A DNA stretch of 63,641 nt from an uncultured Bacteroides sp. (GTDB lineage Bacteria; Bacteroidota; Bacteroidia; Bacteroidales; JACABE01), in contig CAZYEM010000001.1 of assembly GCA_964646395.1 (NCBI GenBank), positions 1 through 63,641 on the forward strand, in the 5' to 3' direction. Positions 1 to 63,641 of the stretch are shown here, one piece after another. Numbering within the stretch: the first letter of the stretch is position 1; the number at the start of each line of letters is the position of its first letter. The notes under the pieces are model-generated. The model worked only from the letters and a program-made list of their open reading frames with translations. It did not search any database and was not told the origin of the DNA. The position numbers and the translations under genes are program-made.

Positions 1-55
1 GTGGTCAGGTCAGGCAGTTGTATGTATGTGGTTAGGGGGATGTGTTGGTATTGGT
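1..55. repeat. Left terminal inverted repeat (55 bp), exact reverse complement of 63587..63641
   Basis: Reverse-complementing the last 55 nt reproduces nt 1-55 exactly. Identity breaks at nt 56-57. By my count the top strand has 24 G, 20 T, 8 A and 3 C (80% G+T, 49% G+C), unlike the AT-rich interior. Confidence 0.9.
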
Positions 56-98
56 TAGAATGTGATAAGCGGTAATATAACTTGATGAATGGTAGCTT

Positions 99-134
99 AT
101 TATTTTGCGGTATCAAAATTACGTCTTATCTTTG
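99..134 (+). promoter_or_regulatory. Bacteroidota-type early promoter (conserved 21-nt box with -33 TTTG, plus -7 TATCTTTG)
   Basis: TTTG at 104-107, a 19-nt spacer, then TAnnTTTG (TATCTTTG) at 127-134. The 21-nt box ATTATTTTGC[G/A]GTATCAAAAT at 99-119 recurs at 3819-3839. The first ORF follows 34 nt downstream. Confidence 0.55.
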
Positions 135-167
135 TGTTATATTAATTAATCAAAATATTAAAAAGAC

Positions 168-377
168 ATGAAAAACATTTTTAAAATCAATTATGACGGA
201 ATGTACTCAAGTATTGAAGAAATAAGCCCAATTAACTTGCTAGGAGAGACAATAAAATTTGACAACTACAATTATTTTCCGACCAAAGTAAAAGCAAAAA
301 AACAATTGATACAAGAATTGACAAACCGAATGAACCATTTAAAGGAAGCTATTAAATATATTAAACAATCATATTAA
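168..377 (+). CDS. hypothetical early protein (69 aa), first gene after the left end
   Basis: ATG ORF directly downstream of the promoter box and followed by a hairpin terminator. No recognisable motif. Confidence 0.55.
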   Translation: MKNIFKINYDGMYSSIEEISPINLLGETIKFDNYNYFPTKVKAKKQLIQELTNRMNHLKEAIKYIKQSY

Positions 378-382
378 TAAAA

Positions 383-408
383 GGGGCTTGAAATATAGCC
401 CCACTTTT
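383..408 (+). terminator. intrinsic terminator-like hairpin
   Basis: GGGGCT (383-388), an 8-nt loop, AGCCCC (397-402), then ACTTTT. It lies 6 nt after the stop codon of 168..377. Confidence 0.5.
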
Positions 409-444
409 AAAAACCTCAATTTGCTTAAACAAAATAAAACAACA

Positions 445-1020
445 ATGAAAAACACAACTACAACAATCGCAAGAAACTCAAGTTACTTTAACCCTTATTT
501 TTTTGAAGGGAAACAAATTAGCCGTTTAGTATTTTTTAAGGACGGCAATGAACTTGCTAGGGTTAATTGGTTTACGTTAAACGTATCAAATAACCGAGTG
601 CCATTAATTGATTTTGAAACCCCTATTTTGAACAAAAGAAAAATAGACTTAAATACAAAGCAAGTTTACTATTTTTCGGGTAATATATATATTCACGCCG
701 ATATCGTGGAATTTAAATTCGTGGAAAGCGAAACCATTGATATGGAAAACGAATATAGAATAAGACACAAATTTCAAATAAATGTACTTTGTCAAATTGA
801 AGAAGGTTACATTAATGAACAAGAGCAATACCGCACAAGATTGACAGACCTACAAAAGCGAGATTTAGTAGAAAGCTATGCCGTAGATTTTGAACCTAAA
901 CCGCAACAAATTCAAGCAAATAAATTAGCAGAAGAATTTAAAAGCGTTTTAAATGTAGATATAAGCAAATACGATATTTATAAGCTACTAAACAAGTACC
1001 AAATCATTAATAAAATATAA
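445..1020 (+). CDS. hypothetical early protein (191 aa from the ATG at 445)
   Basis: The ORF-track start at 388 is a TTG inside the terminator hairpin. The first in-frame ATG is at 445 (MKNTTTT...). Confidence 0.55.
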   Translation: MKNTTTTIARNSSYFNPYFFEGKQISRLVFFKDGNELARVNWFTLNVSNNRVPLIDFETPILNKRKIDLNTKQVYYFSGNIYIHADIVEFKFVESETIDMENEYRIRHKFQINVLCQIEEGYINEQEQYRTRLTDLQKRDLVESYAVDFEPKPQQIQANKLAEEFKSVLNVDISKYDIYKLLNKYQIINKI

Positions 1021-3873: not shown

Positions 3874-4455
3874 ATGAACAACACAACAAACTTGTTTGCA
3901 ACCGCAACAAAAGTAAAAGAAACAATTAAAAAGACCGACAAGAAGGTCATTAAAGCGCCTTTACTAACCGATAAGGTTAAAAGGTATGCAGAACTTAAAC
4001 AAGCTATTGACACCGCAACGGGAGAGCTTAAAATGATTGAAGGCGACATTAAAAATGTAGGCAAAGACTTGTTTATGAAAGAATATAGACAAGTAAAAAG
4101 CACACCTGATAATTTTAAGATACAAGATGAAGCCGGTTTTACTTGTATGTTTATAGTAATGGATAAGTACACTAGTGTAGATGAAACTAAAGCGGGTATT
4201 TTAAGCCAATTTGAAGGGTTATTATCCGAGAATGTAGTTTACAAGTTCAATGCCGACCTAGTTGAGAAATATGGCGCAGTATTGAGTGAATTGATACTTA
4301 ATTGTCCTGATATTGAAGAAGAAGATAAAGGTAACCTGATTAGTGGAGAAAAGACTTTTTCAGTAACTAAAGGAAGTATTGACCGCCTGATGCAGTATGA
4401 TAGTCCTGAAGCAGTATTTGAATTAATTAACCCTATTGTAGCACTTAAAAAATAA
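3874..4455 (+). CDS. hypothetical protein (193 aa)
   Basis: ATG ORF directly downstream of the second promoter box. No motif recognised. Confidence 0.55.
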   Translation: MNNTTNLFATATKVKETIKKTDKKVIKAPLLTDKVKRYAELKQAIDTATGELKMIEGDIKNVGKDLFMKEYRQVKSTPDNFKIQDEAGFTCMFIVMDKYTSVDETKAGILSQFEGLLSENVVYKFNADLVEKYGAVLSELILNCPDIEEEDKGNLISGEKTFSVTKGSIDRLMQYDSPEAVFELINPIVALKK

Positions 4456-4984: not shown

Positions 4985-5218
4985 ATGCCTGAAGTAACTA
5001 AAACAAGAATGTTAAGAGAAACTATGTATCATATGTTTAAGAATGATACTTTGCCATACCTTGATATGGAAGATTTTATCCTAATGTGGGAAACATTAGC
5101 AGATAGTTGGAATGTCCGTATGATTGATAACAATTGGGAAGATTTTGCTGAAGAAATCAATAGTCAAGCATCCAATAGAGAATCTGTTTTTAATGAAATT
5201 TTTGACAAATATTTTTAA
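4985..5218 (+). CDS. acidic hypothetical protein (77 aa)
   Basis: ATG ORF, co-oriented with the operon. Confidence 0.45.
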   Translation: MPEVTKTRMLRETMYHMFKNDTLPYLDMEDFILMWETLADSWNVRMIDNNWEDFAEEINSQASNRESVFNEIFDKYF

Positions 5219-5219
5219 T

Positions 5220-5879
5220 ATGATACCATACTTGAATTTTAATTACATATATCCACCAAGACCTGAATTTAAAATACCGCACACCGAATTGCATAAATTT
5301 GAAGGTCAGGAGTACCTAGCACAACCAAAGTACAATGGAACTTGTTGCCTTGTTTTTACCAATGGAGATGATGTTTATGTATATAATAGGCATAAGAATC
5401 CATTAAGTAATTTAGATGTAAACATTGAATTTAACCAATTAGCTAAAACTAACCAATGGTATGTCTATGCGGGAGAATATTTAAACAAAGGAAAGATAGG
5501 TGAAAATGGAATTAAAGAGAAAGACAAATTTATTATATGGGATGTCCTTGTATGGCAAGATATGTACCTGATAGGTGAAACCCTTGCAGATAGACTGATA
5601 CTACTTGAAGAAGAATACCCGTCAAATAGAATGATAGTTACACCTGAAGGAGTAGAAAGCTATGAACATATATGTTTTACCAATATAGATAACATATACA
5701 AAGCCCCAACATATACGGGTGGATTTACTAAACTATATAATGAAATAGTAGAGGTAGACCTATATGAAGGATTGGTGCTTAAAAAAGCACACTCTAAACT
5801 AAATTTTGGCTTTAACGAATTAAACAACAACGATTGGCAAGTAAAATGCCGTAAAGAAACTAAAATATATAAATTTTAA
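5220..5879 (+). CDS. ATP-dependent nucleic-acid ligase, nucleotidyltransferase domain only (219 aa)
   Basis: Motif I is AQPKYNGT (the KxxG adenylation lysine). Motif III is VYAGEYL. FIIWDVL is also present. Motif IV is EGLVLKK and a motif V-like WQVKCRK follows. The ATG at 5220 avoids overlap with 4985..5218. The protein is too short to hold an OB domain. Confidence 0.7.
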   Translation: MIPYLNFNYIYPPRPEFKIPHTELHKFEGQEYLAQPKYNGTCCLVFTNGDDVYVYNRHKNPLSNLDVNIEFNQLAKTNQWYVYAGEYLNKGKIGENGIKEKDKFIIWDVLVWQDMYLIGETLADRLILLEEEYPSNRMIVTPEGVESYEHICFTNIDNIYKAPTYTGGFTKLYNEIVEVDLYEGLVLKKAHSKLNFGFNELNNNDWQVKCRKETKIYKF

Positions 5880-19689: not shown

Positions 19690-22600
19690 TATTTTGTAGC
19701 TACAATTTTATGAAGTTCGTCTATTTCTGCTTTTAACTCTTGTATTGCTTTTACTAAAACTGCAGTTAATTGTCCATAAGATAATCCCTTCATACCTCTA
19801 TTGTCTGTTGATACTAATTCTTTAATTACTTCTTCAACTTCCTGTGCTATAAAACCAACTTGTTCTAAATTATCTTCTTTCATTTTATAACTTCTTGGCT
19901 TTAACTTTAATACTGCATCTAAGCCATATTCAATATCCTTAACATCTTTTTTAATAGAAATATCTGATGCATCAGTCCATACCCCTGCACTTGATAAAGT
20001 TCCTTGATTACTACCATTCCACCATGCCATTGTGCTACCATTCATATAGCATTGTCTATAATTACCACCATCATAAACTGCCATACCAATTGCATCAAGT
20101 GCTAATCTTGCACTTGCAGAATTTGTTCCAATTCCCATTAATACACTACCCCCCGATGTGATTCTCATTCTTTCTGAATTGCCTGTTCTTATACTAAAAT
20201 CACTTGCACTTGTTGTTCCTACAAAAGAATCACTACTAACTCCACACTCAAGCATCACTGTTGTACCAGCAGGATTTGTTATTTTTACACCTTTCGTTCC
20301 ATCTACTGCTGCATTTGCAACCGCTAAATGTAATAAAGCACTTGGACTTGCAGTTCCAATTGCAACTGATCCTCCTAATGGTTGTAATAAAATAGGGTAA
20401 TTAATATTACTATTATTAGCATCTTTAACTTGTAACCACATACCATAAGATGCACCATTATAACCACCGATATTTAATTGTGGCCCTAAATTACCCGTAA
20501 TTGAAAATAAGTTATTTGTATCAGCAGTCATTGATGGATTACCAGAAGTTCCAAATACACTTAATCTTGCTATGTCATTTGCATTATTAACTCTTACACT
20601 ACTTGAGAATGTAGCAGCACCAGTAGTGCCTATTGTAAGTCTTGCAGTAGCATTTGTGCCTAAAATTAATTCTTTTGAATTTGGGGTATATATTTCTAAT
20701 CCTTCAGCACCCGTTGCACTTATTATTTGTGCCATAAAATTAGTTCCACTTATACCAGCAGATGCACCTTTTTGTCTAACTGCAACTGCATATAAATCAG
20801 CAGAATATCCAGTTATAGTATTATTTGCAGATGTTGAATTTGTGCCAACAACAGTTAATGCTTGATTACTATTAAACGTAGCACTTGTACCAGCTAAAGC
20901 TCTAGATACTAAAGTAACAGTTGTTCCATCATCTGTAATTGCACTATCTCCTATTGATGCGGATGCGGTGAACTTTGGTATGGTATTAATTGTACCACTA
21001 CCAGCAATACCACTATAAGCTCCTACTGCATAAGAATAAGCATATACTACTACTATATCATTTACTTGACAAGCAGTAGCTAATATTATACTTGTACCAT
21101 TGGTCGCAGTATATTCTGATTGAGCTAAATTAGAACCATTATAAAATACATCTATTAACCCTTGAGTATATGTAACTGCAAATGTGGTCTGACCAGCAGT
21201 CGCAGTAAATGTAGTTATTGTTCTAAGTGCATTGGTTGGTAAAAATGCAGTCAAATAGTTATCAATTTCAACAATCTGACCAACTGTTAAAGCATCTGTT
21301 AATACCACAGTAGTACCATTGGTTGCCGTATAATCCACGCCATTAACCAATTTAACTCCATTTACAAACACATCTACCATTCCTACGCTATAACCATTGG
21401 TTACAGTGAAAGTTGTTTGACTTGCTGTTGCAGTAAATACTTGAACTGCTCTTGCAGAAGTGGTTGCGTTACCCGAAGTGCCTGATGAACCAGAAGTACC
21501 TTGCGCCCCTGATGTACCTGAAAGACCGCTAGTACCTGACGTACCAGTTTCGCCTGACGAACCAGTGCCGCCAGATGTACCAGAGCTACCGCTAGTTGCA
21601 CTTGTTCCAGAAGAACCGGAAGTACCAGTTTCCCCTGATGAACCGGTTGCGCCAGATGTTCCACTTGATCCGCTAGTACCTGATGAACCAGAAGTGCCTG
21701 CTATTTGACCTACTGAAGTTATTACATAAGAATAGTTTGTTGATCCTTCGGTATACCAATTTATATTGTGAGTTCCTGATCCAAAATTTGTAACGTAAAT
21801 CTTTACAATAATGCGATCTGTATCAAGAATCGCAGTTGTTGGAAGCACTAAGTCTGTAAGTACCTCAACCGGTGTTGAAGCATCTAAAAAGTCTACTTCT
21901 GAAGCATTTGTAGGTATTATTGTACCATAACCAACGCCCGCAGAGTTTGCTAATTCTATTGTTACATATGCTTCAAAAGCGTTACCATTTGCTTGTTTTA
22001 GAAAATGTAAATGAAATCTTTGTACTCCGCCCGGTATAATGGTAAATCCTAATTCTGGAGTTAGAAATGAACTAACTAAAGCAGTTGATCCTGAACTTAC
22101 CCCAGAAACAGTTACAGTTTGCTGTGCTGCTGTTGAAGGTTCGGTAGCTAATACCTTATAAGGAGATACATCAGAAGATGCACTTTGGTTAAAATAATAA
22201 GTCTGTCCTGCTGAAATGCCGCTTACTCCGCTTGTTCCTGCTGTTCCTGAAGTACCCGTTGTTCCACTTGTGCCTGTTGTACCACTTGTACCGCTTGAAC
22301 CAGAGGTGCCTGCCGTTGCAGAAGTACCTGATGTACCTGCTGTTGCAGAAGTACCAGAAGTACCGCTTGAACCATCGCCACCACTCGCGCCATCCAAGTT
22401 CACTGTCCATGCGCTATAAGTACCACTACCCACTGTTCTAGTAGGGGCTAAAAATGTTAAAGAACCTGTATTTGCATCATATGATACTACCTCGCACTCT
22501 TGAAAGTTTGAAGCATCATAAACTATAATTATTGATTGAGCAGGGCTATATCCCAATAGTGTTCCTATTGTTATAGTACCTGCATTGCCTAAAGTAAATG

Positions 22601-28886: not shown

Positions 28887-31241
28887 TTATTTTTCTGTTT
28901 TTGGTGTTTGTAATTGTTTCTTTTCGCTTACTACTATTCTAGCATCTGCTTGTATTCTTTGAGCAATAACTTTTGCTTCTTTTTGAATTTCTGCTTCTTG
29001 AATATCTTTATCCTTCTTGCCCATTTGGATAATGTAATCCCATTGCTTTTCAGCATTGATACGGGCAACATCGACTTCTAATTGAGTTTGTAATGTAACA
29101 CGCTTCTCTTGCTCTGCAACCTGTACTGCCATAGCATTACCTTGAGATGCTTCCTGAATTTTTTGTAATTCAAATTCTTGCAATTTCTCTCTGCGCTTTT
29201 TAATTCTATAAGCTAGAATCATAGAAGCCATTTTTAAATTTTTGGTACTCATTACCAAAATCTTATCTTCTGGCTCTATCAATCCTTGACTATCTCTTAT
29301 GTTTAATTCTTGAATTAACTGTTGTCTTTCAAAGTCAGATGGCACATCTTCAATAAAGATACCGAACTCATGAATTGAAATATCAGGATTAATTTGGAAA
29401 AATTTAACAGTTTCTTCACCTAATGATCTAGCGTAACCTTCTACCTTGCCTAATTTAACTGCAATTTGAACTTTGCTAACAATGGCATCTGCTAAATCTT
29501 GTATTAATTGTTTATCTGCAAAACTTAATAGATACAAAGCATTATTTGTACTTTCCATTGCTGCATTTGCAACTGGTACTAATGTTTTAGCATTTGGAGT
29601 AGATCCGTCTGTTAATTCATTTAATCCAGATACTTGGCGCATCATATCCAAAGTGTTTTGCAACTCTTGATATAATTGACCAAACACGGCTAACTGACCT
29701 GATGCTTCAATAGATACAGGCTTATAATTAGGATTTTGACTTAGTAAGTCTGTTGATCTGTAAGGCACAACAAAGTTTGAGAAAATAAAATCCATAACTT
29801 TTGTAGGATTCATTTTTTCTCCACCACCACCAAAGTCAACTCCTTCAAGTGCATTTAAGTCTATGTTAATCAAATAAGGGATTAGCTTATTTGACATATT
29901 TTGTAATTTAAACCAAGTAAGGCTAGCTTTATCTTCAAGCGGGATTAGCCTTTCAGTGATTCCAGCAAAACGCATTTTATAAAAATTCCAAGAATAAAGC
30001 TGAATATTCAATTTAGTATCCCACCAAGATGATGGTTTTCTAATTTGATTCTCTGACATACCCCAATCATACATATAGTCTGTTTGGATAAGCCACTTGC
30101 ACTTATAAACTACCTTACGAGTAACCGGCATAAAAATAGGTTCTGCTTGACCTTTCATGCTAAAATCTATCATGTTAGGTATAGTCCCCATTTTATCAAT
30201 AACACCTTCTTTGGTTACAGATAGTTTAGTTGCGTCTTGGTATTTTGTCTTACCAAATCTTACATTACCTCTATTGTCGACTTCTTCTTTGTATGTATAA
30301 TCGTTCCAAGATAAAAATTCAAAATCTAAAACAAGTACTTTGAATCTATTCCAATATTTAGAATAATCAGTACCATACATAAAGTTTGATGGATTACCAA
30401 AACGACCTGCTACGCTTTGTACGATTTGATTCATTTGCTCTACTGTAAACCATGGCGCAAGATCTCCTACATATACTTCTCTAACTTCGCCCCAATGTAC
30501 TAAATCTGAAAAATCATTTTTAGCACAATAAGATAACACCATGTTTTCAGGGTTAATCTCTCTTAATTTTACTTGACCATTTTCATCAATATATTCTGTA
30601 TAACCGCCCATTCCAAAATCAAAAAGATTTTCTATTGTGCGTTTTCTTTTTTCTTCAAATTTATTTTGATACATAGCTAAAGATGCTGCCATCTCTGCTT
30701 CCATAGACATAACGTGCTTGTATCCAAATTGCTCCTCCATCTTTAATTGCTCTAAGTCTTGAGCTTCGCCCGGCTGAGGCGCTAACACTGGGCTGTTAAG
30801 TAATTCTTGATTACCTGCCTTTTGTGCCGCTTCTCTCATTAAAATCTTTACCTTCATTTCGGTAAAGTAATTATCTTCTTCACTTTTAGCAATTGGATCT
30901 ACTGCAAATGCATTTATCGCATATCTTCTTTGAACTAATTTTGATATTGCTATCTCTCTAAACTTTGTTAAAAAAGATGGCGGAGTCCAATCAATGTTCA
31001 ACCAAGTTTTATCTTGTTGCTCATCTACGTTTAAAAGTTTTTTATATTTAGTTGTACTTTGTCTACCTAATGCATATTCTCTAATTTCGTTCATTTTGGA
31101 TTGACCAAAATTTAACATATTGTTAGGAACATACCCTCTTGAATCACCCCAAGCAGCTTTGCAGTATTGTAGTATCCAATCGTATCCTTTTTCTCTAGGA
31201 TCTATCTGCTGGTTAGGGTATGTGTTGGTGGCCTGTTGCAT
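28887..31241 (-). CDS. portal protein (784 aa)
   Basis: The call rests on size and on position upstream of the scaffold and capsid genes. The C-terminus is a charged helical tail. No specific motif was verified. Confidence 0.6.
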   Translation of the reverse strand: MQQATNTYPNQQIDPREKGYDWILQYCKAAWGDSRGYVPNNMLNFGQSKMNEIREYALGRQSTTKYKKLLNVDEQQDKTWLNIDWTPPSFLTKFREIAISKLVQRRYAINAFAVDPIAKSEEDNYFTEMKVKILMREAAQKAGNQELLNSPVLAPQPGEAQDLEQLKMEEQFGYKHVMSMEAEMAASLAMYQNKFEEKRKRTIENLFDFGMGGYTEYIDENGQVKLREINPENMVLSYCAKNDFSDLVHWGEVREVYVGDLAPWFTVEQMNQIVQSVAGRFGNPSNFMYGTDYSKYWNRFKVLVLDFEFLSWNDYTYKEEVDNRGNVRFGKTKYQDATKLSVTKEGVIDKMGTIPNMIDFSMKGQAEPIFMPVTRKVVYKCKWLIQTDYMYDWGMSENQIRKPSSWWDTKLNIQLYSWNFYKMRFAGITERLIPLEDKASLTWFKLQNMSNKLIPYLINIDLNALEGVDFGGGGEKMNPTKVMDFIFSNFVVPYRSTDLLSQNPNYKPVSIEASGQLAVFGQLYQELQNTLDMMRQVSGLNELTDGSTPNAKTLVPVANAAMESTNNALYLLSFADKQLIQDLADAIVSKVQIAVKLGKVEGYARSLGEETVKFFQINPDISIHEFGIFIEDVPSDFERQQLIQELNIRDSQGLIEPEDKILVMSTKNLKMASMILAYRIKKRREKLQEFELQKIQEASQGNAMAVQVAEQEKRVTLQTQLEVDVARINAEKQWDYIIQMGKKDKDIQEAEIQKEAKVIAQRIQADARIVVSEKKQLQTPKTEK

Positions 31242-36346: not shown

Positions 36347-36963
36347 AAATTTCCTAGTTTTTGATAATATCTTTGTTCTATAAATGGCTGCCAGTCAATA
36401 AAGGTATTGCCTATATCTGATACGCCCGGCCTTTGAGTGCATAAAAGTGGATAAGTAATGTAAGTTGTGCCATGGCATTGTATCTTATTTACAATGCAAT
36501 TGTCTATTGGAGCTTCTAAAACTGCCATCAATATCTCCTTCATCCCATGTAATGATATTGCCCAAGCATGGGTGGCATATGCGTTTTCTACTAATAAAAG
36601 GTTAGGTGATGCTCTTAATTTAAACCCCGTAGTACATTGCGCCCCAAGATAAAGGATATCCCATGTAAGAGGCAATTGCTTTACAACTTCATTCATTGTA
36701 TCGTTAGGGTTACCACAAGAATCAACAAACATAGCGTCATCTTCAAATATCAAGACTGACTCCCATTCGTTCTTTATCGCTTCTCTAAATATGTTCTCTA
36801 CTGTAATGCGCAAGCCTTCTGCTCCATTTTCATGCTTTGTGGCATTAATCAATTCGTATGGGATATTCCATTTGTAAAGTTGTTCTGCAATCTCTATTAG
36901 TCTATCTGTTCTTTCCGGCAAGTTTATGACAAATATTTTAGTAAAAAAGTTAGTCCAAGACAT
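36343..36963 (-). CDS. GT25-family glycosyltransferase (LgtB/Lic2B-like)
   Basis: KIFVINLPERTDRL and VLIFEDDAMF are present. The start codon shares nt 36963 with the TerL stop. Confidence 0.7.
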   Translation of the reverse strand: MSWTNFFTKIFVINLPERTDRLIEIAEQLYKWNIPYELINATKHENGAEGLRITVENIFREAIKNEWESVLIFEDDAMFVDSCGNPNDTMNEVVKQLPLTWDILYLGAQCTTGFKLRASPNLLLVENAYATHAWAISLHGMKEILMAVLEAPIDNCIVNKIQCHGTTYITYPLLCTQRPGVSDIGNTFIDWQPFIEQRYYQKLGNL

Positions 36964-39011
36964 TACGCTAGTTTAGTTTGTGGGAAAAAGTCAGTCAGTT
37001 TGAATTTGGCTTCCGGTTTTTTAAAGTTTGCTCTTTTATAATAATCTGCAAATAAAGTCCATCCGCCTCCCATTACTAAGTCAGATACCTCTGTTTCGTT
37101 TACATTAAACTTAATCAATCCATCATATTTATCGTCTATTAATTCTGGGTATATTATCTTTCCTTCCTTACCATGCGTTAAAATGTATTGTTCCCAAAGG
37201 TTCACCATTAGGGCTTTATTGTCCGCATTAGGGTCTACCCCGTAATTTGATTTTTCTGGCAATCTTATCAGAAACGCTTCGCAATAATTGTCAACAAAAA
37301 ACTTTCGCAATCCGCCATCCATTTTCGCCTCTATTAGCATTTGGCCTCCATAAGCAAAGCATTGCAGTACCATATCCATATGGAAAAGCTCTACCATCTT
37401 AGGTCTTGCGTGATACTTGGAAACAAACATCATATTATAAACCGGATCGTTTATGCCTATATCATATCTATTCAAAACTAAGCTAGTTGCCTTTGAACCC
37501 TCTCCATGTTCAACCACTGAGTTTTGGAATGGATCGCATCCCATTATAAACTGCACTGAATTTTTAGGTAAAAATAAATTACCCCTTCTTGTGTATGTTT
37601 CGCCTTTTGTTATCTTAAAATTCTTAGCTCTAGTCCATCTTGCTGCTTCTTTGCTAGTCGTTTCCCATACTGCTTCTGTAAATGGCACTCCGTCTTTCCA
37701 AGTCCAATTACCATATTCAAGCACTTCTTTCTCATTAATTTTGGCTATTTCATAAAGGTCGTTAAGCAATACCGCATCAAAATGGCAATTGGTATTTCTA
37801 AGCATGAACATCTCCCTTTCATCAAAAGGATTCATTCTTATCTCCTCCTCTAACTGAACGGCTTCTAATTGCTTACGCTTGGCTAATAAGTATTCTTTAG
37901 CTCCCAACCTAACATCTTCTTCATTCAAATCGCCTGCACCAACGTAATTATCAACTAAATATTTATATTGTTCTTCTGTTGGTGGCCCGATTACACTCAT
38001 GCCATATCGATCAATAAAGCCCAGATAACCATCATACGCGGGCGAGAAATATTTAACCAAACGATTTGGCGTCTTGGGATATTTCAAATGATCGGCAGCA
38101 TCCCATACTATCTTGAACTCCTCACCCCCGCTAGTCATACTATTCGAGGTTGATGGACATTCAATAAATCCTACTCTCTTGGCACCTTTTACCAATGTTT
38201 TACTTACAATGGATAAGAATGTCGAGAATGGCGTTTCTTTTGCCCATTTTCCGCCTTCATCAAATAAACCACGACTAAGACGACCAGAGTCATAAGAGTT
38301 CAAGGAAGGCGCACGATAATCAATTCTAGACCTATGTCCGGTATCATTATCTATTGCATTGCCTTTTGTGCCTCTAATGTCTACTGACTTATGGGCAAAC
38401 ACAAGTTCGCTTACACTGTCCTTATTGTTTAATTGCTTGGGCTTTAGGAATACCGGGAGCTGTCTGTAACCAAATGAAATCATGTTGGTAAAGGCTGCCT
38501 TGGCATCTATCTGCGTTTTACTCGTCAAACCGCAAAAGCTGTTCTTATAGAAAATACACTCGTAAATTATATTTGATGTCGCTTGGGAGGTCGCACCCTC
38601 ACGGCGTTTCTTACCCCTGACAACACCTAAACACCACGGCGTCTTTTCCCAATGGTCTAAAAATAAAAAGTATCTTTTATCCGCATCCCTGAAATCACCA
38701 TAGATATCATCCTCTAGCTTCCACCATTGAAGGTAAAAATAATGCTTACCTGTAATATATGTGGCTTTACCATTGTTGTAAAACCAAAACCCTTTCTTGC
38801 ATCTATCTACTTCTCTTGTGGCAAAAGCTGCCTGTTGTGCATCAAGCAAAGCGTTGCCCTCCTTATCGTATTCTACTGCCTGAAAAATATTAGGCAGTTC
38901 TTTTCTTCTCCAATACTGCTCGGCAGGATTAGATTCACCCCAATCTTCTATTTCAGTATCACATTCAGGTAGGGTAATGTTGGTTCCGTATATACTTATT
39001 ACTTCAGCCAT
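36963..39011 (-). CDS. terL: terminase large subunit
   Basis: The protein is 682 aa. The N-terminal ATPase region has a Walker-B-like GLFDEGGKW. The C-terminal nuclease region has FIMGCDPFQ. It is preceded by a small helical protein whose stop overlaps the start. Confidence 0.7.
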   Translation of the reverse strand: MAEVISIYGTNITLPECDTEIEDWGESNPAEQYWRRKELPNIFQAVEYDKEGNALLDAQQAAFATREVDRCKKGFWFYNNGKATYITGKHYFYLQWWKLEDDIYGDFRDADKRYFLFLDHWEKTPWCLGVVRGKKRREGATSQATSNIIYECIFYKNSFCGLTSKTQIDAKAAFTNMISFGYRQLPVFLKPKQLNNKDSVSELVFAHKSVDIRGTKGNAIDNDTGHRSRIDYRAPSLNSYDSGRLSRGLFDEGGKWAKETPFSTFLSIVSKTLVKGAKRVGFIECPSTSNSMTSGGEEFKIVWDAADHLKYPKTPNRLVKYFSPAYDGYLGFIDRYGMSVIGPPTEEQYKYLVDNYVGAGDLNEEDVRLGAKEYLLAKRKQLEAVQLEEEIRMNPFDEREMFMLRNTNCHFDAVLLNDLYEIAKINEKEVLEYGNWTWKDGVPFTEAVWETTSKEAARWTRAKNFKITKGETYTRRGNLFLPKNSVQFIMGCDPFQNSVVEHGEGSKATSLVLNRYDIGINDPVYNMMFVSKYHARPKMVELFHMDMVLQCFAYGGQMLIEAKMDGGLRKFFVDNYCEAFLIRLPEKSNYGVDPNADNKALMVNLWEQYILTHGKEGKIIYPELIDDKYDGLIKFNVNETEVSDLVMGGGWTLFADYYKRANFKKPEAKFKLTDFFPQTKLA

Positions 39012-39352: not shown

Positions 39353-42300
39353 TTATTCTTCATCTTCATTATCAAATTCTAATTCACTTTTGGCTTCTTT
39401 TGTTGCTTTACGCTTTATTAAAAGTATAGCTTTTGCAATTTCTTCATTAGTCAATTCCTTTAAAGGAGTATCATTGTAACCTTCTTCATATAATTCTTTC
39501 ATTTTTTCCTCAATCAAAGAATCTCTAAGTTTTACAAATTGCTTAAATTCATCTTTGGTAATATTCTTTTTAACTGATTCAGGATTCATTTCGTCAGAGT
39601 TTTTAGCTCTCATTATTATTTCATCCATAGGTTTTAAAGCGCTTTCTCTGTAATAACTAGAATAACCCAATCCAACTATATTTGGCAACAATACAGTAAG
39701 TAAAGAAATAAAACCATCTTCTTTTGCCGCCTCATATGCATCATCTGCATACATTGGGTATATTTTAACTATTTCCATTGGATCAAAATCTTCACCAATC
39801 GAATTTTTACCAACAATTGCGCTAACAACATATGAATTATTTGGAGCTAATTTGTTTCTAAAAAATCTCAATGTGCTATTCCAAGCAAATGATGCCGATT
39901 CGCTTGCCTCAAATTTACTTTTTGCTGCCCTTGCATATCCCGCTTCTACCAATCTTAAAAAAGTTCTAATATATGCAGCTTGACCAGATGTAATATCATA
40001 TACTTTTTTACCAAACCTAAGCTGTAAAAAATCAGGCTCATCCGGATCAAACGATATCTTAGCTCCTGCTGCTGCTGCTGCTAAACCCAATGCAAGTATT
40101 GTAGACGTATTTGCTGCTAAATCTCGAAATGCCATTTTTTGCACCTCTTTTGGCATTTTTAAAAAATAAACAGGGTTTAGCATGTTTATATTTGAAGCCA
40201 TTAATCTAGCACCATAAAAAACAGACGAAGCTACTTTTTCTCCAGATTTTGTTTCCAAAACTTTTAACATATTACCACTACCAGTCATGTTCATGACATA
40301 TTTTGCCATTTCTTTATATTCATTTGGATCTGACTCTCTGGTAATACCCTTGCTTAAAAGATTTTTTGTTAATTTCGTATAAAGCTCATATCTAGCTATG
40401 TTTAGCGAAGCATCGGCTAACCTTTGAGATACAAGCAATGGTTCTTTCAAAATAGGAATTTCGAAAATAAAACTCTTTGGCAAAAGTTCATTTACATTTT
40501 CTTTGTTAATATCGTTATATCTAATACCATCTTCAACAGAATCCTTATATTCAGGAGCCTGATTAAGATTATACATTAATCTGTCATAATTTTTTTGACT
40601 AAATGCAGATTTGCCACTAGCATTTAAAAATTTTAAAGCAACGTCCCAATGAAGTGGGTTAAAGGTAATTTTAGACAATTGTCTTAACCAAATAGAAGCA
40701 TCAATTGATGTTTGAATTATTCTTCTAATACCCAAAACACTTTGCGCTTTATCCCAACCTTTTTCCCATTTACTTAACTTTGATTGTCTATCCTTATATC
40801 TTTCTAAAGTAATTTTCTTTTCAAGATCAATTAATTTTTCATATAATTCTTTAGTTTTTTTAGACTCTTTGTACTTTGGTTTTTCTACTACTTCTTTTTC
40901 AAAGTTTTTATTTTTTAAATCATCTTCAAGTTTGGCAATTTTTTTTCTAATAAATTTCTGCCTTTTTTCATTATAAGTTTTATCAGAATCATCTTTACCA
41001 ATGCTCGGAGATTGCTCCGACACTCCTTCTTCTGCAACTTCTTTTGATCTGTTTAATTCTCTTACTTCTTTTATTTTTCTTTCAAGTTCAACTATTCTTC
41101 TGCTCTTTGTAGCTAATTCTTTTTCTGTTTTAGCTTCTTCTTCGCCTTTTCTTGCAAGTTCTAATTGACCTAGTAAATCTGCTTCTCTTTTCAATAATCT
41201 TAAACCAGCATTAATTGTGTTTTCTGTTCTTTTTTGAGTATTATACTTTCCTGCAATAACATCAATGACATCTCTTTTTGTAAGACCATCTATTATACTT
41301 GAAAATTCTTTTTGAATTTCTGTTACAATATCATCTAATTTAGAAACACCTTCAGAAAATAAACTTCTTGCATATTTATTAATATGTGGTGCCGCTGCAT
41401 ATAATTGAGGAACCCCAAAGGTAGGCACTGCAAACAACCCGTAATCTCCCCTATTAACCTTTTTTATGGCTTCTCTTGCTGCTTCTAAAGCCTCTTTTCT
41501 TTCTTTTGCATATTCTTCCTTAGTTTTTTTAGGCTCTTTTTTAGCTTCGTATGAAAGCTGTTTCTCAATATCTTGCTCTATTGAAATTTCAAGATCTTCT
41601 TTTGCTTTTTGAACTTTTTCAAATTTAGATGTTTCTACAGATATCATTTTATCTGTTAATGCGAAACCCTTATCTTCTTGCCTTGAAAGCAAGAAATTAG
41701 ACAACGTATTAGCTTCGTTTATTTTTTTTACTATTTGAAAACTTTGCAATGATTTACCTGATAATGATCCTGCAGTTTGAGAATTGTCAACAAATTCTTT
41801 TACTTTTTCAAGCAATTCTTTTGAAGGATTATTCTTTAATTCCAAATCTAAAGCAGCTCTATATTCAGCCATGAATGCTACTTCATAATTTTTAAGAGGC
41901 TGACCATTTCTGATTTTTTTGTACAGATTTTCTATGCTTGCTTTCTTTTTAATCATCTTAGCAGCAATTTCTCTTAACATTTCATGTGTTTCAATCTCTG
42001 TTCCAGTATATTCTGGCAATCCTAAAGATTCTCTTAATTGATTCAATTCTTTATTTGTAATACCAAGATAATCTACATCTTCATTATCTAAACCTACATT
42101 TTCAATTTCCTCAGAGATTTCCTCAAAATCTTCGGCTTGTGTTGTTTTACCTTCTCCGGCAACTGCTTGCCCTTCGATTCTTGGTTCCACTCGTCTACGT
42201 TCACCCCTTCTTTCTCCAATTTTGCGCGGTTGGCTTGGAAGTACCTCCTCTGCGCTTCGCTTTTGTACGGCATCTTTTATATTTTTAAATGTTTGTAAAT

Positions 42301-56496: not shown

Positions 56497-56883
56497 TTAC
56501 AACGGGTTTTCGTTTGTTGTTTCAAAACCATTTGGTTGGTTTAAAAAATCATCATTAGAGGCCGGTTTGCTACTTGACAGCAGGGTTAATGATGCTACTC
56601 TTATATTTAGTTGTGGCAACGTTTCGTTATTTTTGTTTGTGTAAGTTTTTGCTTCTGGCATTCCTTCTAAATACACTTGTGTTCCTTTTTTTAAATAAGG
56701 GGCAATAGCTGTTCTATCAGTCCAATAAGCTGCACTTACCCAAATAGACTTGTTTACTTCTAATCCATCTTTGTTTTTGTACTTTTCAGAATGGGCAACA
56801 GAAAAATTAATTACACTTTTGCCGTTTACATTGTTTACTGTGGCATCTTGTCCTAGATGCCCGATTACTTGCATTTTAATCAT
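56497..56883 (-). CDS. ssb: single-stranded DNA-binding protein
   Basis: OB-fold pattern: MQVIGHLGQDATV...INFSVA...WVSAAYW...APYLKKGTQVYLEG...LNIRVASLTLL. The tail is acidic/aromatic (NDDF). Confidence 0.8.
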   Translation of the reverse strand: MIKMQVIGHLGQDATVNNVNGKSVINFSVAHSEKYKNKDGLEVNKSIWVSAAYWTDRTAIAPYLKKGTQVYLEGMPEAKTYTNKNNETLPQLNIRVASLTLLSSSKPASNDDFLNQPNGFETTNENPL

Positions 56884-56900: not shown

Positions 56901-58757
56901 TTAGAAAATTATTTCTTCTCCGTTTTCGTTTTCAAAAGGCACCCACCCTTGCGATGCTTCTTGTCCTGATTCGGTTTTAAATGTCATATTTTTTTCATTC
57001 AAAAGTTTTTGCATAGGATCTGAACCATTAAAAAAGAATCTTCTAGTTTTAAATAACATTTCAAATACAAAAAACCCCTTTTTACCAACTATTTTTTGTC
57101 TACGAATTTTTTTACTATGAAATTCGCAAGTGGGATTTTGAGGATCTGTTTGTCCAAATGGTCTATGATAAACTAAAATATTATCGAGTTTATTATTCCA
57201 TAATGCACCATCGGCAATGTCAAAAACATCAGGACAAGGATAGTTCCCATCTGTTGCTTTTTGCATTTTAACCGGATGTGCGATTATCCAAAAGTAAACA
57301 TTATTTGTTTGCGAAAATCTAGAAAATAAAGATAAAACCCATTCAAGATATTTATCTCTACCACCAAAGTTTTGGTAATTATTTGCTAATTGATTAAATG
57401 GATCAATGTCAACACCATCAACATTTTCCTTTACAATCAATTGTAAAAAAACTTCCATTATATACTGAGGAGTTGGAGTAACATTTTTAGGATAAACATA
57501 AAAAATGTGCTTACAAACAAAGTCGTATGTGTATTCGTAAATTTGTCTTGAAGGTCTATTTGGATTTGCAGGAGTACAATCGCAACCAAGTAAAATTTCT
57601 ACAAAATCGTGATAGTATTCTTCTGGTGGATTATCTTCTGGTGAGAAGGTAGCAAACTTTTCTCCATATAACAAAATTCGCATTGCCTGATACCATTTTT
57701 TCCAAGAAGATTTTCCGTAGTTACCTATACCGGTTAACACAGTTATCTCTCCCTTTTTTGGCTTGAAAGCAAAGTCCATTTCTTTTACGTTAATTCCACT
57801 CACTGCGGCGTAACCTTGCTCATACAATCCAAGTGCTTGCTCTTTTACATCAATTCCATAGATTACATCATTCAATCTTCCATCTTCGTCAATAACACCA
57901 TTTTCTACTTTAACTTCTAACTTAGAAGTCTTATCAACTAAAATTTCTTTATCAAAAGATGCACTGCTAAACCTACCCCTATTTGTTCTATAAGCAGATG
58001 AAATAGCATTATCTGATTCTCTTTTTGTAAACTCTGAATTACTTAAAAATTCATTGTTAATCATTGAATTAGCTGTCAATTCATCAATACCATAACGACA
58101 ACAAGCTGATGCTAATTTAAAAATAAAATTGTTTCTTTCTCCGGTTACAAATGCCTCGTTCTTGTTAGATAACCATGTTAAAAGTTTCTTAAAAATCTTG
58201 TCATCATCATCGGTTTTTTCATAAATAACAATTTTTTCGGTCTTTTTTATGGTTTTAAAAACCTCAGCTTTTTCGTTTATGTAAATATCGGGATCGTAGC
58301 TTTCGTAACATACTCTGCTTGGATTAACCCCACTTTTGTCAATATCGGGGAATATATCCTGCAATGCTTGAAAATGTTCTCTATGCTTACTACCATCTGC
58401 AATTTTAATCAAGGCTTTTAACCCATTACCTGAAGGGCTAACCCAACAAGCGTAAACGAATTTATTGCTGATAATCTCGGTTTGGCGATCTCTTAGTTCA
58501 AAAATGTTGTCAAAATCCAAGACTATGTATCCGCTATGCTGAATCAGGTCAGAATCCTTCCTTTCTGCACCAAATTTTCCAGAAAAACACACAGAGGGCA
58601 AATTCTTCTTTAAATTGGCAGATTTTTCTTTATCGATAGTATTCCTTATCTCGGACACAGATAGGCGACTCTTGCCCTCCCTAATGCGGTTTAAACCATA
58701 TTCTAGAGTTACATAGTTAGGCTCCTTGGAATAAATGTTTTTAAAGATCGTTATCAT
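56901..58757 (-). CDS. primase-helicase (BT4734/VirE-N-like AEP primase domain fused to a P-loop helicase)
   Basis: The N-terminal LPSVCFSGKFGAERKDSDLIQHSGYIVLDFDN is the VirE_N/BT4734 pattern. The Walker A motif is LTGIGNYGKSS. The Walker-B-like motif is VDGVDIDPFN. Confidence 0.75.
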   Translation of the reverse strand: MITIFKNIYSKEPNYVTLEYGLNRIREGKSRLSVSEIRNTIDKEKSANLKKNLPSVCFSGKFGAERKDSDLIQHSGYIVLDFDNIFELRDRQTEIISNKFVYACWVSPSGNGLKALIKIADGSKHREHFQALQDIFPDIDKSGVNPSRVCYESYDPDIYINEKAEVFKTIKKTEKIVIYEKTDDDDKIFKKLLTWLSNKNEAFVTGERNNFIFKLASACCRYGIDELTANSMINNEFLSNSEFTKRESDNAISSAYRTNRGRFSSASFDKEILVDKTSKLEVKVENGVIDEDGRLNDVIYGIDVKEQALGLYEQGYAAVSGINVKEMDFAFKPKKGEITVLTGIGNYGKSSWKKWYQAMRILLYGEKFATFSPEDNPPEEYYHDFVEILLGCDCTPANPNRPSRQIYEYTYDFVCKHIFYVYPKNVTPTPQYIMEVFLQLIVKENVDGVDIDPFNQLANNYQNFGGRDKYLEWVLSLFSRFSQTNNVYFWIIAHPVKMQKATDGNYPCPDVFDIADGALWNNKLDNILVYHRPFGQTDPQNPTCEFHSKKIRRQKIVGKKGFFVFEMLFKTRRFFFNGSDPMQKLLNEKNMTFKTESGQEASQGWVPFENENGEEIIF

Positions 58758-59466
58758 ACTGCTGAATTGGTTTAAATGCTTTTACGGCTTGGTTCACTTT
58801 ATCTTGATACGAATTACTAGTGGTAAGGCTTATTGGTTTTAAAAACGGAATAGTATTTCGTATTTTAGATTTCCATGATTTAATCGGCTTGTTATTCCCG
58901 TCTTTCCAATCATTTTCAACCCATGATAAAAATTTAGATTTTAACGAATACTCATACAAAGAAAAAATCATCCCGTTTTTTATCATATCATCCTTGCAAA
59001 AAGATAGAAACTCATCAATACTTGGTTTACTTTCTTTACTTTCCTTTCCTTTTATTTCCTTTCCTTTCCTTTCCTTTATAGCATTGCTATCGGATTGCGT
59101 TTGCAATGCGTTCGCATCAATTTTATTTTTATTCCATCTAGAATACGCGCTATCTCTAGCTTTTTGGCTTTTGTCTTGTCGGTTATTTATTCTATTTTGC
59201 ACAGATAAACTACCAAAATTATCACCATTAAAAACGAATAAATCAAAGTCGTGTAATACGCTTTTTATAATGTCGCTTTCCGTTCTTAAATCAAATGCAA
59301 TGCCATCGTAATCCAAATGCAATGCGTTCGCATTATTGTATAGTTCTTCCACAATAGCCCAAAAAATACCATACCCCTGCATCCCGTGTTTTCTAATTAG
59401 CTTTTTAATTTTTTCATCATTCCTACTATTGTAGTCATGTGAAAAATAAAATGTGTCCTTTGACAT
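58741..59466 (-). CDS. DUF4373 (Lin1244/Lin1753-like) replication-initiation-type protein
   Basis: FYFSHDYNSRNDEKIKKLIRKHGMQGYGIFWAIVEELY matches the DUF4373 N-terminal signature. It lies upstream of the primase-helicase and overlaps it. Confidence 0.7.
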   Translation of the reverse strand: MSKDTFYFSHDYNSRNDEKIKKLIRKHGMQGYGIFWAIVEELYNNANALHLDYDGIAFDLRTESDIIKSVLHDFDLFVFNGDNFGSLSVQNRINNRQDKSQKARDSAYSRWNKNKIDANALQTQSDSNAIKERKGKEIKGKESKESKPSIDEFLSFCKDDMIKNGMIFSLYEYSLKSKFLSWVENDWKDGNNKPIKSWKSKIRNTIPFLKPISLTTSNSYQDKVNQAVKAFKPIQQYDNDL

Positions 59467-60127: not shown

Positions 60128-60744
60128 AATTAAATTCAAACATTCCAAGTTTTAAAGCATTTGTAAGAAAATCATATTTTACAAAAAATGAAGTTGATGC
60201 TGATGAGTTTTACAATGTATATGTATTTGCTTTACAATCTTGTGCAGGGAAAATAGTTACATTTCATGTTCTTACCGATTCTGGCATGCTAAGAAGCAGA
60301 GTACCTCTATCTGAAATTTACACTAAAATGCCAACAAAAGATATTCCTTATAATTACAAACAATTATGGGATTGTTTTAGTGAAAATGTATCTATAATTG
60401 AATATGATTTTTTAGCATTTCATAGATGTCAAGTTGTTTTAAGAGATAGCACAAAAGTTTGGGCAACATACATTTTTACAATTGATTGGTATAACAACCC
60501 ATATAGCGATGAGCCATCTGATTACAAGTGTGGACATGTTTTAGAGTCTGATGATGGGTACTTGTTATGTATGCCTAATAATAGAATATTTTGGAAAGAT
60601 TCTAATTGGGTAACAAAACAATTGCCAGAAGATTTAAAACAATTTAAGGTTGACACCAATTTAGATTCCGTTGAAAACCAGTCTGACAAATGGGTGGTAG
60701 AAGATACAAATTCTTTTTATTATGATATTAACGAAAATAAATGA
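60124..60744 (+). CDS. hypothetical protein (206 aa)
   Basis: ATG ORF coupled to both neighbours by ATGA overlaps. Confidence 0.55.
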   Translation: MKLNSNIPSFKAFVRKSYFTKNEVDADEFYNVYVFALQSCAGKIVTFHVLTDSGMLRSRVPLSEIYTKMPTKDIPYNYKQLWDCFSENVSIIEYDFLAFHRCQVVLRDSTKVWATYIFTIDWYNNPYSDEPSDYKCGHVLESDDGYLLCMPNNRIFWKDSNWVTKQLPEDLKQFKVDTNLDSVENQSDKWVVEDTNSFYYDINENK

Positions 60745-61289
60745 GAAACTCAACAATAATTGTAAAAAAGAAAAGATGCATTAATTGCAGTAAAATTGAT
60801 TATCATTTTTCAAAAAAAATGTGTAAACAATGCGCCACAATACATAGCACACAAAGGAGAATGGACGCACATGAAGAAGAAGATTTTGAAAGTTTCAAAA
60901 ATTTAACAGAAGATCTTGATCATGTTTTTAGCCAATACATTAGATGCAAATATGCTGATAAAGAAGGTATGGTTGAGTGTTTTACTTCAGGTAAAAAATA
61001 TCATTGGACTAAAATCCAAAATGGGCATTTTATCCCAAGAGCTAATTTAGGCACCAGATGGCTTGAGCAAAACTGTCGCCCGCAGTCTGAAAATGACAAT
61101 GTGTTTTTATCCGGTAATTTGGATGTATATGCTAAAAAATTAGACCAAGAAAGATCTGGGACAGTCGAATACCTTCAAGAATTAGCTAGGCAGGTTGCTA
61201 AACCAACAAAAGACGAGCTTAAAAGCCTAATTATTGAATATAGGGCTAAATTGGACTTGGTTAAAAAGAAATTTTTAAAAATAATTTAA
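60741..61289 (+). CDS. ninG: NinG/Rap-like recombination endonuclease
   Basis: There is an N-terminal CxxC...CxxC pair (CINCSK...CKQCA). FSQYIRCKYADKEGMVECFTSGKKYHWTKIQNGHFIPRANLGTRWLEQNCRPQS matches the NinG pattern (fs..iR.rD...C.tcG....w....aGHf.sR....R....N...QC). Confidence 0.65.
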   Translation: MRNSTIIVKKKRCINCSKIDYHFSKKMCKQCATIHSTQRRMDAHEEEDFESFKNLTEDLDHVFSQYIRCKYADKEGMVECFTSGKKYHWTKIQNGHFIPRANLGTRWLEQNCRPQSENDNVFLSGNLDVYAKKLDQERSGTVEYLQELARQVAKPTKDELKSLIIEYRAKLDLVKKKFLKII

Positions 61290-62019: not shown

Positions 62020-62991
62020 TTATAAAATTTTATCATTAATAATTCTTTTATTTAGAACTTCAAATTCTCCATTTTTTTCTACCAAGATATGCGCGAATCC
62101 TACATTGTGTTTTGTATTGTGTGGATCATAGTCCGGAGCTAATGTGCATAAGCATCCAACACTCCAACAACTAATCTGTTCTTCTTTTATATTTGTTTCA
62201 GAATGATTTGAAGTAGCGTGAACATGACCAATAATCATTGAGCTTTTAGCTCTCATAAATACGCCTCTTGCAGCGTTTACGGGTGCCATGAATCCTCTCA
62301 CAATTGTGTGGCCATGTAGCATGTGCAACTTACCCGCGCGAACCACTACATGTTGTTCATAAAATTCTACGTTATATTTTTTTAAATCAAGTCTTTGCGG
62401 CAATCTGTAATATTCATCATTAAAAAATACAGGTGCTTTTTTCATTAAGTATCTTACATACCAATTATCATGATTTCCCTCTAGCCAAACTATATGTGCT
62501 TTTGGAAATTTTGTTCTTAAATGCGAAAGAAATATTTCACAATATTCAAACCACTCAACTACATCATCTTTTCCCGGAGGCGGTGCATCATGACTTGTAA
62601 ACGGGGTGTTGTCTAAAATATCTCCTCCCAATACAATACAATTAATTTTATTCTTAACCCCATACTCAATAGCTAACTTAATAGCATCGTTGTCTTGATT
62701 TGGAATGTGAATATCTGATAGCCAAAGAATATTATTAGAACTTGTTGGTAAATCTACAAATGCTCTGTTTTGCATTTTAGATGGAGGCAAATCCGGAGTA
62801 TGTGTAATTTTTATATATTTACTTGACTTTTTTCCGCAAGCACTTGAAACTCCTCTTATTGCAGTCCTTGCGTGTTCTACGCTGTTAAAAATATGTTCAT
62901 GATCATTGTAAAGTTTAGCCGCAATTGAGTGTTTACTAATAGACGGGAATTTTGCTAAATACTCGGCCGCTAGTTGCTGTTTTTGTGTCAT
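62020..62991 (-). CDS. calcineurin-like metallophosphoesterase
   Basis: All five signature blocks are present: LSDIHIP (DxH), GGDILDN (GDxxD), EGNHDNW (GNHD), LHGH and IGHVHAT (GHxH). Confidence 0.8.
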   Translation of the reverse strand: MTQKQQLAAEYLAKFPSISKHSIAAKLYNDHEHIFNSVEHARTAIRGVSSACGKKSSKYIKITHTPDLPPSKMQNRAFVDLPTSSNNILWLSDIHIPNQDNDAIKLAIEYGVKNKINCIVLGGDILDNTPFTSHDAPPPGKDDVVEWFEYCEIFLSHLRTKFPKAHIVWLEGNHDNWYVRYLMKKAPVFFNDEYYRLPQRLDLKKYNVEFYEQHVVVRAGKLHMLHGHTIVRGFMAPVNAARGVFMRAKSSMIIGHVHATSNHSETNIKEEQISCWSVGCLCTLAPDYDPHNTKHNVGFAHILVEKNGEFEVLNKRIINDKIL

Positions 62992-63539: not shown

Positions 63540-63586
63540 TGTTTTTTATATTATTAGCAAATCACCTACCCATTCCCCTCCTTCAT

Positions 63587-63641
63587 ACCAATACCAACAC
63601 ATCCCCCTAACCACATACATACAACTGCCTGACCTGACCAC
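63587..63641. repeat. Right terminal inverted repeat (55 bp)
   Basis: It is the exact reverse complement of nt 1-55. Confidence 0.9.

Follow-up and report, generated by a model that had tools for sequence, protein, structure and literature searches.

Viruses of the family Rudiviridae (SIRV1/SIRV2) possess a linear double-stranded DNA (dsDNA) genome with kilobase-scale inverted terminal repeats (ITRs) and closed hairpin ends, encode the resolvase Hjr and are replicated by the host polymerase. Long ITRs and hairpin telomeres are also found in Poxviridae, Asfarviridae and chloroviruses, where a RuvC-like resolvase (A22 in vaccinia) acts with a ligase on the concatemer junction. Cleavage of hairpin four-way junctions by SIRV2 Hjr was shown to yield nicked hairpins, which can then be sealed by a ligase, and the same resolution route has been proposed for SIRV2 Hjr and for poxviruses (PMC3157427). 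The present analysis concerns a stretch of 63,641 nt from an uncultured Bacteroides sp. (contig CAZYEM010000001.1 of assembly GCA_964646395.1), hereafter called the window, whose two ends carry an exact inverted repeat of 55 nt. The window is the unique central part of the linear-map genome of a tailed phage, with long ITRs lying beyond both of its ends, and at its outer tip the ITR meets an axis of symmetry within an AT-rich palindrome, across which the assemblies of near-identical and related phages read. Long fold-back-tipped ITRs with a resolvase gene at each tip, in a common lineage of uncultured phages, are real and unusual. The best reading overall, which appears moderately likely from the sequences compared, is that these tips may be hairpin telomeres of the poxvirus/rudivirus kind, resolved by a RusA-type enzyme and a ligase.

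Exact comparison of the window ends showed that nt 1–55 and 63587–63641 are reverse complements of each other and that the match stops abruptly at nt 56, the mismatch beginning at nt 56–57 (TA on the left, AT on the right). A match of such length and exactness, sited at both contig ends, cannot be due to chance. The 55-mer consists of 15% A, 5% C, 44% G and 36% T, which gives 80% G+T and 49% G+C compared to 30–34% G+C in the interior of the window, and it contains the short direct repeats GGTCAGGTCAGG, TGTATGTATGTG and TTGGTATTGGT; in all of this the original prediction, which had been drawn from the window alone and had called the repeat foreign in composition, was accurate.

The length of the repeat has a different origin. 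The window is contig C1, the longest of its assembly (423 contigs, 4.25 Mb, 32% G+C) and the sole one among the 423 with inverted-repeat ends of this kind. When contig ends were compared across the whole assembly, 78 contig–contig overlaps of exactly 55 nt were obtained, none for k = 21, 33, 41, 77, 99 or 127, and two link entries for k = 31. Overlaps of 55 nt are the signature of a de Bruijn graph built with k = 55, in which neighbours share one k-mer. Both ends of C1 overlap one and the same (right) end of another contig, C321 (4,248 nt), the 55-mer being an exact match to C321 4194–4248, and the two contigs form a closed component of the assembly graph. C321 is therefore a repeat that the assembler collapsed into a single copy and that belongs on either side of C1 in opposite orientations, and neither nt 1 nor nt 63641 of the window is a genome end. 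With the repeat continuing on C321, which joins both C1 ends, the inverted repeat at the genome termini comes to about 4.2 kb, and the 55-nt ITR is almost certainly an overlap stub with this long ITR behind it. The original prediction had left the choice between an undescribed end strategy and an artefact: the 55-bp length and the equation of contig ends with genome ends turned out to be an overlap artefact of k = 55, whereas the stub does flag a real ITR of about 4.2 kb with a fold-back tip. No 22-mers are common to the phage contigs and the remaining assembly, hence neither a CRISPR spacer nor a second copy was found there. The boundary features of the window are as follows:

1..55, + strand: left ITR stub, the innermost 55 nt of the ITR of about 4.2 kb, identical to the last 55 nt of C321
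56..387, no strand: non-coding leader from the ITR boundary to the first left-arm open reading frame (ORF), according to the ORF list, the sequence and the comparison with metagenome contig L095
63587..63641, − strand: right ITR stub, reverse complement of nt 1–55, past which IMG/VR contigs L001 and L003 continue

The right junction is crossed in independent contigs. L003 (100% identical) runs from window nt 60031 through 63641 and the 55-mer into C321 sequence for 1.8 kb, and L001 (99% identical) does so from nt 61821 through 63641 for about 4.2 kb; a third contig, L002, is identical to C321 and ends at the same branch point. On the left side, the exact junction had no match in IMG/VR or in the metagenome contigs, and the first left-arm protein had no relative in IMG/VR. 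The metagenome contig L095, with an ITR 98–99% identical to that of C321, spans the whole ITR from the tip and passes into left-arm-like DNA (87.6% identity to window nt 1014–1391), and it shares the leader TTATTTTGCGGTATCAAA with the left arm of the window. The resulting map would comprise an ITR of 4,232 nt, a unique region of 63,531 nt and a second ITR of 4,232 nt, for a total of 71,995 bp. It was also considered whether C321 could be a separate palindromic replicon that merely shares an end with the phage; this was rejected, given that contigs from several metagenomes join ITR genes to both unique arms and that a relative (G005, below) has both ITRs in one contig. The near-identical strain of L001 carries an insertion of about 560 nt in its ITR (L001 3861–4420), at about position 2155 relative to C321.

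All genes of C321 are oriented toward its outer end:

C321 82–537, toward the outer end: RusA Holliday-junction resolvase (Pfam E = 8.8e-15, 55.8 bits against a cut-off of 22.8; phrog_140 E = 5.4e-22)
C321 518–727, − strand: Arc/CopG-like ribbon-helix-helix (RHH) gene overlapping the RusA start (C321 is also L007; equivalents at L093 438–590 and L086 6210–6431)
on C321, toward the outer end: PD-(D/E)XK exonuclease (phrog_5715 E = 5.1e-49)
on C321, toward the outer end: DUF6321 protein (family match)
C321 1324–2124, 2174–2512 and 3239–3595, toward the outer end: three proteins with no family match

RusA belongs to family PF05866, scoring above the curated cut-off and keeping the catalytic pattern PD-x-DNLxKA...ED; its motif PDIDNLQKA...ED aligns with PDKDNLEKA...DD of the Rus protein of phage HK639, at positions that we take to be the catalytic D70, D72 and D91 of Escherichia coli RusA. 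It has no close relative among cultured phages, and neither single-sequence nor profile searches against solved structures gave a RusA structure. At the DNA level, comparison of C321 with cultured phages gave only short DUF6321 matches (Pelagibacter and Methylophilales phages). RusA and the small RHH gene are the only genes common to every ITR examined; the RHH product has 50–73 aa, its gene overlaps the RusA start in each case, and the protein may have RusA as its target or control the tip operon. These candidates for end processing (RusA and the PD-(D/E)XK exonuclease) escaped the original prediction because they are located on a separate repeat contig.

The tip itself reads as a mirror. C321 starts with CCCTAAATTATTTATA joined at the axis to TATAAATAATTTAGGG, i.e. 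16 nt beyond the axis, which equals (33−1)/2 and would fit if the same assembler had passed through a k = 33 stage before. L002 ends 15 nt past the axis, so that both contigs end at the edge of a 32-nt palindrome; L095 shares this tip sequence and extends 52 nt beyond the axis, where it is the exact reverse complement (0 mismatches). A search with the RusA protein retrieved 76 IMG/VR contigs at 70–100% identity and four contigs at 59–90% identity from metagenome-assembled genomes (MAGs; Bacteroidota-type and other). In all of these approximately 80 contigs RusA is the last gene before the tip, and in 74 of the 76 IMG/VR contigs it is truncated by a contig end or situated no more than about 150 nt from one. 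The other two, L016 (6,322 nt) and L062 (9,398 nt), are palindromes from end to end, with 100% identity to their reverse complements: each represents an ITR followed to the axis and then back again. Past-axis reading of 11–70 nt was found in 11 IMG/VR contigs, exact in ten and with one mismatch in L017 (70 nt), and altogether at least 15 contigs read past the axis as the reverse complement. Extensions of 63, 63 and 70 nt correspond to (k−1)/2 for k = 127 and 141, because a unitig must stop at that distance inside a palindrome. With a RusA of 66% identity, the MAG contig L097 (JAFDXJ010000009.1) continues for at least 120 nt across the axis, and its RusA lies 278 nt from a contig end that is already beyond the axis. 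Direct read-through, without a small single-copy segment, was observed in L095, L015, L018, L062 and L016, and non-palindromic centres between perfect arms in L097 (about 20 nt, in the last 250 nt) and L011 (4 nt, in the last 50 nt). None of the roughly 80 contigs showed a continuation from the tip into foreign sequence or a direct terminal repeat.

The neighborhood of the axis combines a conserved and a variable part. After the RusA stop codon comes a conserved box, GCCAAAGACTCNGCGTYTRTGAGTATTATATAC (about 33–75 of L007), then a variable stretch of 35–95 nt and finally the AT-rich axis. The box recurs in 36 different tip sequences, RusA identity falling to 66% among them, and it is a candidate cis-element for telomere processing or RHH binding. 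The palindromic axis, on the other hand, differs among relatives (TTATATATAA, TAATATATATTA, TTACATGTAA, TTAATTAATTAA and GTTAAC). A conserved flanking box with a variable palindromic centre appears to fit a structure-specific cut better than a protelomerase site.

Four long relatives show the same architecture with ITRs of variable length:

G005, 66,344 nt: ITRs exact over 1,295 nt and RusA at each end, placed in the ITR class by IMG/VR; the ITR would be at least 1.3 kb
G001, 69,236 nt: one end carries the tip and the ITR, the opposite end an inverted 99-nt stub of the inner part of the ITR, from its inner end; ITR of about 1.95 kb
G004, 67,524 nt: 99-nt stub at the far end; ITR of about 4.67 kb
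G003, 70,128 nt: 311-nt stub with one mismatch; ITR of about 4.68 kb

The mismatch in the G003 stub implies two physical ITR copies, and the ITR of L062 measures about 4.7 kb. Copies of a palindrome, TGTAGCTACA, are present just inside the unique region in one arm of G001, G003, G004 and G005 (first 60 nt inside the ITR boundary; L085–L094), and the window has a single copy of it at 19695–19704, far from the ends.

The inner end of the ITR is marked by a G/T-rich, C-poor block that occupies the last 200–250 nt of C321 (about 4020–4248) and continues to window 1–55 and 63557–63641, the 55-mer being its inner end. Such a block forms the ITR inner end in all the long relatives, even those with ITRs of 1.3–2 kb, and short repeats of the GGTTTTNG type and an GGTACGGGCAATTG motif in it are common to G003, G004 and L062. 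It sits between diverging gene sets, the genes at the leader 56..387 diverging from it, and could be an origin, a regulatory region or the limit of ITR homogenisation. Rfam gave no match in the ITR or at the window ends, and a promoter/terminator scan of the block gave nothing above shuffled sequences. A Chi-like role was dropped because the orientation would act on enzymes moving outward and not inward from the tip.

Considered as a mechanism, these features suggest a route of the poxvirus/rudivirus type and not of the N15 protelomerase type. The genome would be replicated by the host polymerase, loaded by the phage initiator, the AEP primase-helicase and the single-strand DNA-binding protein (SSB). 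Replication would round the hairpins and turn each tip into an inverted-repeat junction, whose AT-rich centre may be extruded as a cruciform, that is, a four-way junction; RusA would nick this junction symmetrically and the nicked hairpins would be sealed by a ligase, either the ligase-like protein of the phage or that of the host. As a guess, recombination with the ITR-encoded PD-(D/E)XK exonuclease could keep the ITR copies identical. Judged from the contigs, the tips are probably covalently closed hairpin telomeres at some stage of the life cycle, while RusA as the resolving enzyme is a tentative assignment, a little short of an even chance. It is about equally likely as not that a widespread uncultured Bacteroidota lineage of terminase-encoding tailed phages has linear genomes of about 66–75 kb with kilobase-scale ITRs and closed hairpin telomeres made by a RusA-type resolvase and a ligase without a protelomerase. 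A full-text search of open-access papers and preprints found no description of a tailed phage with kilobase-scale ITRs and hairpin tips without a protelomerase.

The window supplies the following genes for packaging and replication, together with candidates for processing of the ends:

5124..5879, + strand: small ligase-like ATP-dependent nucleotidyltransferase (Pfam DNA_ligase_A_M E = 1.1e-7, 32.2 bits against 26.2, residues 50–101 only)
28887..31241, − strand: portal protein (phrog_6547 E = 1.5e-67)
36963..39011, − strand: terminase large subunit, TerL (phrog_6681 E = 3.8e-70)
56497..56883, − strand: SSB (phrog_44 E = 9.6e-19)
56901..58757, − strand: AEP-type primase/helicase (phrog_18375 E = 3.3e-56; Pfam BT4734-like_N and PriCT_1)
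58741..59466, − strand: replication initiation protein with a Lin1244/DUF4373 N-terminal domain (Pfam Lin1244_N E = 1.9e-10; phrog_2562 E = 3.5e-18)
60741..61289, + strand: NinG/Rap junction-specific endonuclease, a second branched-DNA nuclease (phrog_5034 E = 3.4e-16; Pfam NinG E = 9.1e-9)
62020..62991, − strand: calcineurin-like metallophosphoesterase (Pfam Metallophos E = 4.5e-8; phrog_221 E = 2.1e-36; phrog_7339 E = 2.9e-5), with a weak match to a DNA-repair-exonuclease family

The terminase large subunit identifies a terminase-packaging tailed phage; among isolates the nearest matches, with no more than 29% identity, come from Flavobacterium elemo, Cellulophaga and Tenacibaculum phages, and tail fibre genes are also found in the window. 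The Pfam and PHROG matches bear out the initiator, the AEP primase-helicase and the SSB as the replication genes that the original prediction had named, and nothing in the analysis supports the special role at the ends that it had considered for the AEP primase. Its statement that the polymerase and protelomerase were missing also stands on the larger pair of contigs, as scans with PF16684, PF03175, PF00476 and PF00136 placed none of these on C1 or C321. For protelomerase (ResT/TelK, PF16684), nothing scored E ≤ 1 anywhere in the 4.25-Mb assembly, C1 and C321 included; protein-primed family-B polymerase (PF03175) gave only a sub-threshold match on a host contig, family B polymerase (PF00136) matched on host contig C151 only, and the whole-assembly scan for family A polymerase (PF00476) likewise placed its matches on host contigs and none on C1 or C321. 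Two further ORFs of the window were recorded: one of 2,543 aa in the structural module (39353–46984, − strand) without a PHROG match at E ≤ 0.001, and an early gene (60124–60744, + strand) that matches phrog_3704 (E = 7e-40), labelled 'ferredoxin' in PHROGs.

Several observations weigh against hairpin telomeres made by RusA and a ligase. The chief difficulty is the presence of a terminase, since, to our knowledge, hairpin-ended DNA is packaged by no known terminase phage. Nothing but its place beside the tip ties RusA specifically to the ends, RusA and NinG are found in ordinary lambdoid phages, and in the RusA of G005 an Asn replaces the second Asp of the motif. The ORF at 5124..5879, which matches PHROG 114 (DNA ligase, 4.2e-7) and PHROG 548 (RNA ligase, 1.5e-6), is a candidate sealer of nicked hairpins, but its assignment as a ligase is weak: its putative motif I reads KYNG instead of KxDG, all NCBIfam ligase models fall far under their cut-offs and no solved structure matches. 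Additionally, the left junction of the window phage itself rests on the 55-nt overlap and the variant contig L095.

The strongest of the other explanations, which is nonetheless unlikely, is a circular, or circularly permuted concatemeric, genome in which an ITR lies head-to-head with its inverted copy as an uncut, zero-spacer perfect palindrome of 8.5 kb, the terminase making the virion ends elsewhere (at a direct repeat, by cos or by headful) and no hairpin telomere being formed. Such a genome would yield the identical de Bruijn graph, both C1 ends joining C321 and C321 folding back, which also weighs against closed hairpins, and a terminase is encoded in the window. Perfect palindromes that are long and lack a spacer extrude as cruciforms and are targets of SbcCD and of junction resolvases, and the phage carries its own RusA gene at the axis, so that cutting into hairpins would be the expected fate of such a palindrome. 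The contigs that read directly through the axis (L095, L015, L018, L062 and L016) lack a small single-copy segment, and the absence of a direct terminal repeat, or of a tip joined to other sequence, among the approximately 80 contigs also speaks against it. The distant isolates, on the other hand, favor it, as they close as circles or have short direct repeats, the latter being predicted for Gundel (PMC8776804), which is among the nearest isolates by TerL.

An improbable explanation is a linear genome with long ITRs whose ends are open or capped by protein, the crossing of the axis having been made during library preparation by snap-back synthesis or end-to-end joining. It would account for the short extensions of C321 and L002, which go no further than the edge of the 32-nt palindrome (16 and 15 nt beyond the axis), and for the many relatives that end at the axis or slightly before. 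However, read-through of 34–120 nt and of whole ITRs recurs across many metagenomes and assemblers, and in every case the axis occupies the equivalent site downstream of RusA; several of the extensions measure (k−1)/2, as the graph would give if the crossing reads are real, and C1 and C321 encode no protein-primed polymerase.

It is slightly less probable still that hairpin telomeres do exist and owe their formation to an enzyme hidden among the unannotated ORFs, either an unrecognised protelomerase or some other nicking-joining enzyme, with RusA serving only general recombination. RusA is common in phages without hairpin ends, and many early ORFs on the window (388–1020, 1035–1373, 1969–2469 and 3874–4455) and on C321 have no family match. 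These unmatched early ORFs, however, encode at most 266 aa and the known protelomerases are longer; the assembly as a whole has no PF16684 match, the variation of the axis among relatives favors a structure-specific over a sequence-specific enzyme, and only RusA and the small RHH gene recur in every ITR examined. Finally, a true 55-bp ITR at physical genome ends, kept by a new mechanism such as an AEP primase-polymerase, has nothing but the exact 55-nt match in its favor and is refuted, as 55 nt is the overlap length throughout the assembly and C321, L001, L003 and L095 carry sequence beyond both window ends.

These results have a practical side. CheckV and IMG/VR count k-mer-sized ITRs at contig ends as evidence of completeness; here such a stub hides 8.5 kb, including the genes most relevant to the biology of the ends, and comparing ITR length with the assembler k is a cheap safeguard. 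If hairpin telomeres made by RusA and a ligase are indeed present, tailed phages would share an architecture so far tied to poxviruses, African swine fever virus, chloroviruses and archaeal rudiviruses, and bacteriophages would have a second, independent way to build hairpin telomeres, with an end type outside those recognised for terminase packaging. They would also offer a tractable bacterial system for resolvase-made telomeres, and two questions would be raised: how does a terminase package hairpin-ended or head-to-head concatemeric DNA, and how do such ends escape SbcCD?

Among the known systems, the assembly graph resembles that of a collapsed inverted repeat, as in plastids (large single copy/inverted repeat/small single copy), in that the 55-nt ITR equals k and the repeat goes on in a separate collapsed contig; unlike the plastid type, there is no small single-copy segment and the repeat contig folds back at the axis. 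Protein-primed ITR genomes (phi29, Cp-1, PRD1; invertrons) differ in two respects, since C1 and C321 have no protein-primed family-B polymerase and the contigs read through the tip, whereas assemblies of protein-primed genomes stop at the capped blunt terminus. Phages of the N15 type (N15, PY54, phiKO2, VP882 and phiHAP-1) are likewise tailed, encode a terminase and combine a primase-helicase with the host polymerase; their DNA can be linear with hairpin telomeres, and the uncut tel site is a palindrome, like the tip described here. Unlike them, the present phage lacks a ResT/TelK catalytic domain, its axis varies in sequence between relatives, a non-exhaustive search showed no partition genes, and its ITRs are of kilobase scale, whereas N15-type phages have only short telomere half-sites.

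The closest analogues are the Rudiviridae and the poxvirus-type genomes. With respect to the latter, the present phage has a bacterial host, no polymerase of its own, terminase packaging and a resolvase of an unrelated family; as in poxviruses, its ITRs have an AT-rich fold-back tip, the conserved box a short distance from the axis recalls the resolution sequence, and the non-palindromic centres of L011 (4 nt) and L097 (about 20 nt) recall the incompletely paired flip/flop loops. Compared to the Rudiviridae, it is a tailed phage with portal and terminase and not a rod-shaped archaeal virus, its resolvase belongs to the RusA and not to the Hjc/Hjr family, no HUH Rep nickase was found in the phage, and the closure of its ends is a prediction. 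It resembles them as a prokaryotic virus with kilobase-scale ITRs, a fold-back tip, a junction resolvase and no DNA polymerase of its own, and the route proposed for it would be the same, from extruded opposed ITRs through a hairpin four-way junction to nicked hairpins sealed by a ligase (PMC3157427).

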